A stretch of DNA of 64,000 nt from positions 64,001 to 128,000 of IMG/VR virus record IMGVR_UViG_3300018080_000003. One strand, written 5' to 3'. Origin of the DNA: a virus. Positions 55,264-58,179 of this stretch are shown here, piece after piece. Position 1 is the stretch's first letter. Every line of letters begins with the position of its first letter. The position numbers and the translations under genes were made by a program. Under the pieces are notes generated by a model. It saw only the letters and a program-made list of their open reading frames with translations. It had not been told where the DNA came from and searched no databases.

Positions 55264-56124
55264 ATGCGGGTTCTTGTCGTAGACGACTCCGAGACCGATC
55301 GGAGACTCCTCACAGCCATGCTGGAGGCGCAAGCGGATCGTGAAACAGGTCTGTTTCATCAGTTCGATGAGGCCGGTACGCTCGACCAAGCGTTGAAAAT
55401 GCTTCGAAATCGAGAGCCCTACGACGTCGTGCTCCTCGACCTCAACCTGCCCGACTCCGAGGGGAAGACGACCTTTCAGCACCTCTACCCGGTCGCTCGG
55501 CCTACCCCCATCGTCATCTACTCCGGACTCGACGACCAGACGCTGACCAAGCAACTCATCGCCGAAGGCGCCAGCGACTACATCATCAAGGTTCCCGGTC
55601 TGAAGGCAAAGCAGGTCCTCAACACCCTGATGATGACCGTTCAGCGGTCGCACTATGAGATCAGAGTCGCGCAAGACCAAGCAGAGGCGGTCAACAACGC
55701 AGAACGCGCCACAAAGACGCTCATCAGCGTCTCCTCACAGGCCCCTGAAAGCCAGGTAGGCAAAGAGTTCAACGTCGAAACAGAGCACCACGACCACCTG
55801 AGAGAGCACCAGAGAGCGCTAGCTCACAGCATCGATGGGCTCTTCCAGATGATGAAACTCCAGGTCGAGAAGGATGCTCGACAAGACGAGGCGATCAACA
55901 CTTCTCGTATCCGACAGGTTAGCCTCGAAGAGGCTCAGAAGGTGCTCGCTCGCGACAGCGTCTACCTCGAAGAGAAACAGAAGGAGATCAGCGTAGACCT
56001 GAAAACCTTCGACAAGAAGACCAAGCGACAGCTTGCTATTCTCGCCTTCATGATCGCAGCCGGCGGCGCCGGCCTTCGCGATCAAGCCCCAGTCCTCTGG
56101 GAGTTCCTTACGAGTCTGATGTGA
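55264..56124 (+). CDS. Response-regulator receiver fused to coiled coil and C-terminal hydrophobic segment
   Basis: VLVVDD, LLDLNLP, IYSG, DYIIK; tail QLAILAFMIAAGGAG. Confidence 0.85.
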   Translation: MRVLVVDDSETDRRLLTAMLEAQADRETGLFHQFDEAGTLDQALKMLRNREPYDVVLLDLNLPDSEGKTTFQHLYPVARPTPIVIYSGLDDQTLTKQLIAEGASDYIIKVPGLKAKQVLNTLMMTVQRSHYEIRVAQDQAEAVNNAERATKTLISVSSQAPESQVGKEFNVETEHHDHLREHQRALAHSIDGLFQMMKLQVEKDARQDEAINTSRIRQVSLEEAQKVLARDSVYLEEKQKEISVDLKTFDKKTKRQLAILAFMIAAGGAGLRDQAPVLWEFLTSLM

Positions 56125-57176
56125 AAGTCCGAGAGTACAAGAACGCGCTTGAAATTGTTCCTGTTTTGGCTGTCATCTACAGCAACTGTCACAAGGAACC
56201 GAGCGATATCGTGGTGGACTACATCTCATCGCACAGCCTAGAACGCTTCACGCCCGTCGCTGACCCCATCGGAAAGTCCATGAACGAGTTCGAAGGGTAT
56301 GAGACGCTCGCCGAACAGATCCATAGCTGTGCAAAGACTGGAGAGTCAGATGATGTCCTGTTCAAGGATGAGCCTTCGTCGGGGTGGTTCGTAGGGTCGC
56401 TTCATCGAATCAACCGCCAACACGTGCTCATGACCTACAAGGACGTGAAAGAAATCGTGCTCGACAACATGGCTTTGGGGCGCGCTGCGGAGATCGCAAA
56501 CAACAAGAACGAAAAATTCATCCGTGCACTCGCTCATGACCTGAAAGAGCCTACCCGGGCCATCGTGGGGTTCAGCGAGATCTTGTTGACCCACTGGGAC
56601 AGCGTCCAGCCGTCGCAGCGAGAAGAGTACCTTCAACACATCAACAGTGGAGCGTTGAAACTCCATGAAATGATCCAAGAGCTTCGCAACTACGCTCTGT
56701 CCGAAAAACCTGCATCCGATATCGAACCCATCACCGCCAAGCGGATGATCCAAGAAGCAGTCGAGATGGCGAAGTCGAAGCTTCAGGAGAACAACAGCAC
56801 GATCAGCGTCCGATGGTCGATCGATGAAGAAGTCATCGTTATCAGCTCGCTCAAGCGAGTCCTCTTCAACTTCATCGACAACGCCATCAAGTATCAACGC
56901 AAGGACGTGCCATCTGAGATTCAAGTCACAGCCTTCTTGGAAGACAAAGACCTCGTCGTGTCCGTTCAGGACAACGGATTGGGCTTCGAGCCAGAAGACG
57001 CAGGAAGGATCTTCGAGCCCTTCCACAGGCTTTCTCCCCATCAAGAAACGCCCGGCGTCGGCATGGGGCTTGCCATCTGCAAAGATATCATCTCAAAAGT
57101 AGGCGGACGGATCTGGGGGACCTCCAAAGGGCTCGGCAAGGGCTCGCACTTTACCTTCAGAGTCCCCATCAGATGA
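56121..57176 (+). CDS. Soluble sensor histidine kinase
   Basis: H-box AHDLKEP, N-box NFIDNAIKY, DNGLG, IFEPF, GVGMGLAI. Confidence 0.92.
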   Translation: MKVREYKNALEIVPVLAVIYSNCHKEPSDIVVDYISSHSLERFTPVADPIGKSMNEFEGYETLAEQIHSCAKTGESDDVLFKDEPSSGWFVGSLHRINRQHVLMTYKDVKEIVLDNMALGRAAEIANNKNEKFIRALAHDLKEPTRAIVGFSEILLTHWDSVQPSQREEYLQHINSGALKLHEMIQELRNYALSEKPASDIEPITAKRMIQEAVEMAKSKLQENNSTISVRWSIDEEVIVISSLKRVLFNFIDNAIKYQRKDVPSEIQVTAFLEDKDLVVSVQDNGLGFEPEDAGRIFEPFHRLSPHQETPGVGMGLAICKDIISKVGGRIWGTSKGLGKGSHFTFRVPIR

Positions 57177-57604
57177 AACGAAGCGCTAAAATCAAGGTTG
57201 TTGTCATGCATCTAGAGGATAGCGACTCAGACGCTATCCAGATTGAGCTTGCGCTCGATAAGGCTGCGCCAAACTGGAAGGATCACGCTACGATCTACCG
57301 AGCGAGAGACGTTCGTGAGGCCAGGAAGACGATCAAGAGCATCCGGCCCCAAGTCCTTCTACTCGACCTCAACCTGCCAGGGGTCTCAGGACATGAATTC
57401 CTCGTCGAACTGAAGAGTGACCCCGCCACTTCTTCCATCCCCGTCCTCATCCTCAGTACGTCTGACGCCGACGGAGATGTCCTCAAGGCCTACCACAATT
57501 TCGCTTCATGCTACCTGGTGAAGCCTGCCAGCTTCGCCAAGCTCGTCGCCATCATGGGCGCTGTGAAGAAGTTCTGGCTCGAAATCGTGACGCTTCCACC
57601 ATGA
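57173..57604 (+). CDS. Single-domain response regulator (Rcp1-like)
   Basis: LEDSDSD, LLDLNLP, IPVLILSTS, YLVKP. Confidence 0.9.
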   Translation: MKRSAKIKVVVMHLEDSDSDAIQIELALDKAAPNWKDHATIYRARDVREARKTIKSIRPQVLLLDLNLPGVSGHEFLVELKSDPATSSIPVLILSTSDADGDVLKAYHNFASCYLVKPASFAKLVAIMGAVKKFWLEIVTLPP

Positions 57605-58179
57605 GACCGAGCAGTTCAGACTTCACAACACCACCGGAGCCGTTCACCTCCTTCGATGAGAGCGTCTGTGACCCTAGCCCCCAGCCTGGTGTCGTTCGCT
57701 TCAAGGATTGGGTCATGAGCGAGTGGGGCGGGCGAAGCCTAGGTATCGTTCGCGAGTGTGGTCTCACCGGCTCCACCAGTGGACACTACAGCGGCAGCGC
57801 CTGGGACTGGGGGCTGAACGCGAGTGACCCTCAAGAAGCAGCCATCGCAGAGGACATGCTTCAGTGGCTGCTGAAGAACGACGCAGAGATGTTTCGACGT
57901 GCAGGCCTCGGCTACGTCATCTGGAACAAAAAGATCTACTCGCCTCGCATCAGCACCTCTTGGCGCCCCTACACGGGAAGAAGCCCCCACACCGACCACG
58001 TCCACTTCTCCTTCGGGCCTGACGGGGCCGCGGGCAGCACGAGCTTCTTCGGCTGGCTTGATGGGCCCAAGAAGAAGAGCCCCGTGCTTGCCCCGAAGAC
58101 CGTCGTGCCTGCGGTCGCAGGAGGAGTGCTCGGCTTCTTCGTCGTCACCTATCTTCAGAAGAGGCGTAAGGGCCGATGA
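57601..58179 (+). CDS. Probable Zn cell-wall peptidase (M15/hedgehog-like fold) with C-terminal membrane anchor
   Basis: SGHYSGSAWD, YVIWN, HTDHVHFSF; tail PAVAGGVLGFFVVTYLQKRRK. Confidence 0.7.
   Translation: MRPSSSDFTTPPEPFTSFDESVCDPSPQPGVVRFKDWVMSEWGGRSLGIVRECGLTGSTSGHYSGSAWDWGLNASDPQEAAIAEDMLQWLLKNDAEMFRRAGLGYVIWNKKIYSPRISTSWRPYTGRSPHTDHVHFSFGPDGAAGSTSFFGWLDGPKKKSPVLAPKTVVPAVAGGVLGFFVVTYLQKRRKGR

Follow-up and report, generated by a model that had tools for sequence, protein, structure and literature searches.

Bacterial viruses are usually thought to read the state of their host through host regulators or through small-molecule and peptide systems. Why does a virus encode a complete two-component phosphorelay of its own, in a single operon with a cell wall peptidase? 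The operon in question lies at positions 55264–58179 of a 64,000-nucleotide (nt) stretch of viral DNA, referred to here as the window, which covers bases 64001–128000 of the IMG/VR record IMGVR_UViG_3300018080_000003. This record is 143,727 bp long, has direct terminal repeats and is rated 100% complete. The virus carrying the relay is a complete 144-kb uncultured bacterial virus, for which no DNA match to deposited phage records was found. We find that viruses have retained this relay across deep divergence; it probably lets the virus monitor its host's condition in order to control a membrane or cell wall step of infection.

The operon contains four genes, all on the plus strand. The first (55264–56124) encodes a protein of 286 amino acids (RR1), which has a receiver domain and a helical tail with a short terminal hydrophobic helix. 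The second (56121–57176) encodes a soluble PAS-type HisKA sensor histidine kinase (HK) of 351 amino acids. The third (57173–57604) encodes a stand-alone receiver of the RcpA/Rcp1 type (RR2) of 143 amino acids, and the fourth (57601–58179) a tail-anchored peptidase of 192 amino acids from the VldE/MT3 family, predicted to be a LAS zinc L,D-endopeptidase. Overlaps of 4 nt join each gene to the next (GTGA at 56121–56124, ATGA at 57173–57176 and ATGA at 57601–57604). These were read directly in the sequence, where the genes, their coordinates and their overlaps are as the original prediction for this locus described them, and the four genes are translationally coupled. All four are under purifying selection, the ratio of non-synonymous to synonymous substitution rates (dN/dS) being 0.08–0.12 against an 87%-identical relative, L012 (RR1 0.08, RR2 0.11, peptidase 0.09).

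The gene upstream of the operon encodes an SNF2 protein, it starts at 55244 on the minus strand and is divergent from RR1, with a gap of 19 nt to the RR1 ATG. A promoter-like control region is found in and at this gap (55228–55263, plus strand). It consists of the hexamers TTCACG and TAAGAT separated by 17 nt, 7 nt ahead of the ATG. Four lineages show no change in either hexamer, although their kinases share only 50–87% identity. They match the sigma-70 consensus at 8 of 12 positions, which is under the threshold of the scanner used; the scan for sigma-70 promoters and terminators returned no scorable promoter, and no plus-strand terminator within the operon. Judged from its sequence, this element may be a promoter, in which case the RR1 message is possibly leaderless.

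HK matches the Pfam families HisKA (E 4e-8) and HATPase_c (E 1e-25). Its phospho-acceptor is H139 (nt 56535–56537, plus strand), found in the sequence LAHDLKEP in the H-box of the dimerisation and histidine phosphotransfer (DHp) domain. The catalytic motifs were compared in an alignment of the window protein with lineages at 87, 57, 50 and about 34–35% identity. H139, N250/D253/N254, D284xGxG288, F298 and G312xG314 are invariant across these five lineages. The original prediction that the His motif is intact is therefore borne out, and with its H, N, G1, F and G2 boxes invariant the kinase shows no sign of being catalytically dead.

The kinase model indicates a soluble sensor kinase of the PAS-DHp-CA type, with a PAS_4-like input domain at residues 1–118, followed by DHp and by the catalytic and ATP-binding (CA) domain at residues 242–350. 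The AlphaFold2 model has a predicted local distance difference test score (pLDDT) of 74 overall and of 75–90 over the first 110 residues. It aligns with HK853 (Z 21.6, root mean square deviation 5.4, 227 residues aligned) and with the kinase domain of the bacteriophytochrome RpBphP2 (Z 20.4), and over its full length with PAS kinases such as the LOV kinase YF1, VicK and ThkA. The N-terminal domain is grouped with PAS_4 domains in the ESM Atlas (feature score 0.97, TM-score 0.75–0.83). Structure prediction, which had been proposed for this domain, thus gives a PAS_4-like fold. The 118 N-terminal residues had no match among PDB sequences, so the PAS assignment rests on predicted structure. No transmembrane segments were found in HK, nor any GAF or PHY match, the single PAS_4-like domain being ahead of DHp.

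The two receivers contain no other domain recognised by Pfam. The Response_reg match covers residues 3–109 of RR1 (E 1e-16), and is also the only match in RR2 (E 7e-14). The scan found no DNA-binding domain in either protein, in agreement with what had been predicted. The phospho-acceptor aspartates and the pocket residues around them are also intact, as expected. RR1 keeps D7/D8, D59, S87 and K109, including in the distant homologue P0141, and in RR2 the residues E15/D16, D65, S95 and K117 are invariant in all lineages (D65, the invariant phospho-Asp, is encoded at nt 57365–57367 on the plus strand). The RR2 profile matches 5te9 (2.5e-27), RcpA (1k68, 8e-27) and Rcp1 (1e-24) in the PDB over its full length.

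The tail of RR1 (residues 135–286, about 150 residues) is charged and predicted to be helical. It contains a Gly/Ala-rich hydrophobic stretch of 15–17 residues flanked by Lys/Arg (residues 256–272, nt 56029–56079), which is followed by a conserved amphipathic EFL helix. The original prediction had RR1 ending in a coiled coil and a hydrophobic helix. The C-terminal hydrophobic helix is present, although it is short and marginal as a transmembrane segment; the coiled coil rests on composition and on a low-confidence fold. Homologues of the tail occur only within its own clade, with four proteins found in a 5.8-billion word search and two clusters in an exhaustive profile search of 1.84 billion proteins.

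The fourth protein had no match in the local copy of Pfam, which lacked the VldE model. Precomputed matches to PF26571 ('VldE') are found on the peptidase and on all 15 of its homologues. The family profile matches the VldE crystal structure 9flh (E 6e-7), pairing SxHxxGxAxD with the H301/D308 zinc site and HxDHxH with H370/D372/H373/H375. The viral motifs are S60xH62xxGxAxD69 and H130xDH133xH135. H62, D69, H130, H133 and H135 are invariant in 16 of 16 sequences, and correspond to VldE H301, D308, H370, H373 and H375. VldE has been shown by experiment to be an L,D-endopeptidase with the LAS fold, and the roles of these residues are taken from that work (PMC11667670). Going by these shared motifs, the viral protein is probably a peptidoglycan L,D-endopeptidase.

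The catalytic domain of the peptidase is N-terminal and is followed by a Pro-rich linker, a transmembrane segment (residues 166–185, nt 58096–58155, plus strand) and a basic tail, QKRRKGR. The anchor is present in 14 of the 16 homologues. No signal peptide, LysM or other wall-binding module was found in the peptidase. The PF26571 and 9flh matches and the C-terminal transmembrane segment agree with the earlier description of a membrane-anchored cell wall peptidase.

A second, unrelated wall enzyme of the virus carries nearly the same anchor. This is an SLT-type lytic transglycosylase encoded outside the operon (604–1296, minus strand), with matches to Pfam SLT and to PHROG transglycosylase/baseplate hub families. 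Its C-terminal anchor has the GVLGFF core in common with residues 165–188 of the peptidase and departs from them at only a few surrounding positions. The virus encodes about 20 tail-anchored proteins with basic C-termini, most of them from genes in the structural arms. Among the 190 pairs of tails in this set, the SLT and peptidase anchors score second best (63, against a mean of 25.7 and a standard deviation of 8.4). Because its anchor matches that of the viral SLT and the wider tail-anchored class, a role in association with the membrane or the virion suits the peptidase no less than that of an endolysin. Directly downstream of the SLT gene is a 173-residue open reading frame (ORF; 86–607, minus strand) with a sub-threshold match to DSPc, the dual-specificity protein phosphatase family (31.1 bits against a cut-off of 33.5, E 2.4e-7). 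This is possibly a second signalling-type enzyme of the virus.

The relay could in principle have been taken up from a host recently. Full-length relatives of HK number only five, all metagenomic, with 99, 87, 57, 50 and 34% identity. All other matches, including cellular kinases, are at most 35% identical and cover the DHp-CA core only. IMG/VR holds only one other member of the clade, and scans of IMG/VR and of JGI metagenomes with the kinase alignment otherwise returned generic kinase cores only. Kinase-core matches in deposited phage records are below 31% identity. One deposited record, L099 (GenBank MW462191.1, 'Bacteriophage sp.', 103 kb), carries a PleC-like kinase together with aminopeptidase N, GlnE and HigB, and looks bacterial rather than phage. 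The relay is not a recent host capture: the similarity to cellular kinases is confined to the core and does not exceed 35%, neither the PAS input nor the RR1 tail occurs outside the clade, dN/dS is 0.08–0.12 and IMG/VR contains a single other member of the clade. The original prediction had named recent capture, catalytic inactivity and the lack of a linked peptidase in relatives as grounds on which it would fall; the genes are instead long-conserved and have intact catalytic residues, and the peptidase is linked to the relay in four lineages.

The gene order has been conserved to different degrees. L012, with HK at 87% identity, is collinear with the window and keeps the gene overlaps. In L011 (HK 57%) RR1, HK, RR2 and the peptidase occur in the same order, with overlaps of 4 nt between HK and RR2 and between RR2 and the peptidase, and of 1 nt between RR1 and HK. 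In L001, the IMG/VR relative (HK 50%), the block from HK to a 193-residue ORF downstream of the peptidase has been inverted and moved behind a gene for a 1226-residue protein with a tyrosine recombinase domain, while RR1 has stayed beside SNF2. The moved block spans 5944–8823 of L001 and corresponds to 56121–58922 of the window. A programmed invertible segment was considered and rejected, as no flanking inverted repeats were detected in either genome and the block was moved as well as inverted; the rearrangement is read as an evolutionary event and not as a programmed switch. The ATGA coupling between RR2 and the peptidase persists in four lineages, the most divergent having a kinase of 50% identity.

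In the most distant lineage, represented by L009, L010, L013 and L014 (HK 34%, RR2 49–54%, RR1 tail 30%), the order RR1-HK-RR2 and a 4-nt overlap of RR1 and HK are kept. The loci fetched from this lineage share no gene beyond the trio with the window genome. Their neighbours include a Cys-rich protein of 115 amino acids after RR2 and a PG_binding_1 protein two genes upstream of RR1. L009 also encodes a PurZ-like adenylosuccinate synthetase (4488–5651, minus strand; phrog_1211, E 7e-53) and a ThyX-type thymidylate synthase (2290–3630, minus strand), which hints at a 2-aminoadenine (Z) genome.

Homologues of the peptidase also occur in relatives that lack the relay. Of six such contexts, three keep the divergent SNF2 gene, and L007 also keeps a DUF7168 gene and the gene downstream. 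In L007 and L008 the slot between SNF2 and the peptidase is filled by a 130-residue protein with an N-terminal transmembrane segment and a coiled coil. Homology of this protein to the RR1 tail was tested and rejected (hhalign probability 0.2). On another viral contig, L004 (2203–5133), a VldE-like peptidase directly follows a GHKL ATPase protein of 771 amino acids (HATPase_c_3, E 2e-6), which is not a histidine kinase. The relay and the peptidase are thus two modules that can exist apart; in one subclade they came together and have remained so.

The layout of the relay resembles that of Detocs, which consists of the kinase DtcA, the stand-alone receiver DtcB and the receiver-effector DtcC (bioRxiv 10.1101/2023.01.24.525353). 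The lone receiver of Detocs has been proposed to buffer stray phosphorylation, and some of the effectors are transmembrane proteins (bioRxiv 10.1101/2023.01.24.525353). By analogy, we hypothesised that the viral relay gates a membrane or cell wall step of infection through a Detocs-like layout, and we give this reading an even chance. HK would read a cytoplasmic cue through its PAS domain, autophosphorylate on H139 and serve as phosphate donor for D59 of RR1 and D65 of RR2. The output would be at the level of proteins and membranes and would not be transcriptional. Because of the Detocs analogy, RR1, held at the membrane by its tail, would act as the effector and RR2 as a phosphate sink or buffer. 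The gated step could be the deployment of the co-translated peptidase, or of a membrane compartment common to the peptidase and SLT, and the operon would be separate from the canonical endolysin cassette. In a more specific and rather improbable version, RR1 would be a new kind of phospho-switched membrane effector under a PAS kinase, damped by a buffer receiver, that decides when tail-anchored hydrolases (the VldE-like enzyme and perhaps SLT) reach peptidoglycan or enter the viral membrane.

Several observations are consistent with gating of a membrane or wall step. HK, RR2 and the peptidase remained one cassette when they were moved in L001, and a wall-related neighbour recurs in the distant lineage in the form of the PG_binding_1 protein near RR1. 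Relatives without the relay carry a transmembrane coiled-coil protein in the slot between SNF2 and the peptidase. The anchor common to the peptidase and SLT is a further point in favour.

Other observations weigh against it. The L009 lineage has the relay but no peptidase, and in the six related contigs peptidase homologues (43–54% identity) have no kinase or receiver beside them. Because each module is found without the other, their presence on one transcript may be coincidental. The peptidase has no signal peptide, and its basic tail comes after the transmembrane segment. The hydrophobic stretch of RR1 is short, and by hydropathy is marginal for a membrane span. Fold prediction for RR1, including the regulator tail for which it had been proposed, gave no usable structure (pLDDT 39, from an alignment of only five sequences). 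The PADLOC scan, with a library version in which the presence of Detocs models was not confirmed, gave no sequence link of the relay to Detocs or to any other defence family.

The alternative that survives best is that the genes are incidental neighbours, which we judge to be somewhat unlikely. The relay would then be an independent accessory module and the peptidase an independent membrane- or virion-associated entry enzyme, the two having merely a transcript in common. A comparable enzyme is P7 of phage PRD1, a membrane-associated transglycosylase. This would account for peptidase genes that adjoin SNF2 at the same place in related viruses without a kinase or receiver, for the relay without a peptidase in the L009 lineage, for an anchor that matches SLT and about 20 tail-anchored proteins mostly from the structural arms, and for a canonical endolysin encoded elsewhere. 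It would not lead us to expect that four lineages, down to 50% kinase identity, retain the coupling of RR2 to the peptidase, that HK, RR2 and the peptidase stay together through an inversion and a move, or that a different wall-binding protein adjoins the relay in a distant lineage. A link between relay and peptidase, for which synteny had been proposed as a check, is seen in four lineages but is facultative.

A signal-timed lysis is a second alternative, in which RR1 would be a phospho-switched protein, similar to a holin, an antiholin or XhlA, that releases the tail-anchored peptidase as the endolysin. We regard this as distinctly unlikely. The domain order of RR1, a receiver followed by a helical tail and a Gly/Ala-rich hydrophobic helix, would suit such a role, and relatives without the relay have a small transmembrane coiled-coil gene ahead of the peptidase. 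Weak look-alikes of RR1 in the ESM Atlas include XhlA and DUF1515 clusters, but at feature scores of 0.79–0.80, which is the level of noise, and a likeness of the tail to these families was rejected as due to chance. The hydrophobic helix is short for this purpose at 15–17 residues, and no match to holin or spanin families was found in RR1 or its neighbours. The virus also encodes a canonical candidate soluble endolysin with PG_binding_1 and Peptidase_M15_4 domains (3610–4473, plus strand), 53 kb from the operon. It is followed by a protein of 84 amino acids with one transmembrane segment (4704–4958, plus strand), and the two are probably a separate lysis cassette. Strict timing of lysis by the relay is weakened because of this separate endolysin. 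The original prediction had inferred a phosphorelay with a membrane output that might time lysis. A relay that is intact, selected, virus-borne and free of DNA-binding domains, with a hydrophobic C-terminus on RR1, agrees with the first part, but lysis timing has no direct support.

The third alternative is that the relay rewires host signalling, the viral HK and the Rcp1-type receiver engaging in cross-talk with phytochrome-type systems of the host, either by phosphorylating or dephosphorylating host regulators or by drawing phosphate from host kinases. The HDLxEP H-box in the HK core is compatible with this, as are its nearest relatives, which are annotated as bacteriophytochrome-type or PAS kinases, and the similarity of RR2 to RcpA/Rcp1, families of this kind being widespread in bacteria. 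It is very unlikely, however, given that every lineage retains the complete, co-evolving set of one kinase and two receivers, which points to an insulated circuit, and that HK is at most 35% identical to any cellular kinase. Least probable of all is a Detocs-type defence or superinfection exclusion system, in which HK would sense a competing phage, RR1 would be an abortive membrane effector and RR2 would block self-activation: the three-gene architecture, which in Detocs includes variants with transmembrane effectors and a buffer receiver, and the movement of the module between unrelated viruses are in its favour, but there is no significant PADLOC match, HK has a PAS input, while DtcA as characterised is a larger protein (phospho-His at 645) drawn with tetratricopeptide repeats (TPRs), the RR1 tail has no known toxic domain, and the position beside SNF2 is in a conserved core and not at a variable moron site.

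Downstream of the operon are several further genes. Two ORFs overlap on opposite strands, a 129-residue ORF on the minus strand (58145–58534), kept in relatives at 97, 69 and 53% identity, and the 193-residue ORF on the plus strand (58341–58922), kept at 86, 76 and 70% identity. The minus-strand ORF would be convergent with the peptidase gene and overlap its 3' end; L007 keeps only residues 53–190 of the plus-strand ORF. A Cys-rich protein of 113 amino acids follows (58919–59260, plus strand). Its weak match to Pfam Toxin_13 (neurotoxin B-IV-like, E 3e-4) is just over the cut-off, and it is probably merely a disulfide-rich small domain. A TnpB gene (IS605 OrfB, 59285–60460) lies beside the relay block, as it does in L012. 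A search of genome contigs for homologues of TnpB gave only matches to archaeal metagenome-assembled genomes at 33–34% identity, which are uninformative on the host.

The relay is a complete two-component system that evolved inside viruses. Its input domain is its own, its output tail has no counterpart elsewhere, and enzymes that cut the cell wall are encoded beside it. Should its connection to the peptidase or the membrane prove true, it would offer a case in which the timing of a viral membrane or wall step by phosphorylation could be tested directly, and also a natural, compact kinase-buffer-effector circuit. If RR1 is indeed the effector, the virus would own a sensory decision circuit for exit or entry that is built on a two-component system. 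The peptidase extends the VldE/MT3 family to a tail-anchored viral form.

The relay can be compared with several known systems. It shares with Detocs one sensor kinase, a receiver-only protein and a receiver fused to an effector that does not bind DNA; this is an architectural match only. In the PADLOC scan the relay gave sub-threshold noise only, the presence of Detocs models in that version of the library not being confirmed. The viral kinase has 351 amino acids and a PAS input in place of the TPRs drawn for DtcA. As the putative effector, RR1 has a helical tail of a new kind with a single short hydrophobic helix, and the system is encoded at a conserved position in a virus and coupled to a wall peptidase. 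The pairing of a cyanobacterial or bacterial phytochrome kinase with a single-domain regulator of the Rcp1/RcpA type (Cph1-Rcp1; PDB 1i3c, 1k68) is similar at the level of the components, RR2 matching RcpA/Rcp1 at E 1e-24 to 1e-27 and HK having the HDLxEP H-box. It differs in that the viral kinase has no GAF/PHY photosensory module and no chromophore motif was seen in it, and in that a second, tailed receiver is present.

PRD1 P7, from a phage with an internal membrane, is a wall hydrolase anchored to the viral membrane; in the present virus nearly the same predicted anchor is carried by SLT and the peptidase. The PF26571 domain of the viral peptidase is shared with VldE (Spr1875) of Streptococcus pneumoniae and with MT3 of the tape-measure protein of mycobacteriophage TM4 (PMC11667670). 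The viral enzyme keeps the zinc ligands of VldE, H-x6-D and HxH, and also the additional His/Asp in its HxDHxH loop. VldE consists of a signal sequence, an N-terminal wall-binding module (described in the PDB as LysM domain-containing), a linker and a C-terminal MT3 domain. It is a host enzyme under transcriptional control by WalRK/VicRK, whereas the viral peptidase is translationally coupled to a receiver gene.

Signalling genes have been reported in phages before, for example the quorum-sensing genes, including agrC, of phage phiCDHM1 (PMC3901668). BFVD already contains about 30 viral histidine kinases, most of them encoded by giant viruses or uncultured phages. They include kinases of Ectocarpus virus EsV-1, Klosneuviruses and uncultured Caudovirales. 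The original prediction that a complete set is unusual in a virus therefore stands in part: histidine kinases as such are already catalogued from viruses, but the literature searches found no study of the function of a complete two-component set encoded by a phage. Most of the earlier viral kinases come from giant eukaryotic viruses, as hybrid or orphan kinases, or were captured as single genes, whereas the system described here is a complete kinase with two receivers, restricted to viruses and equipped with its own input and output domains.

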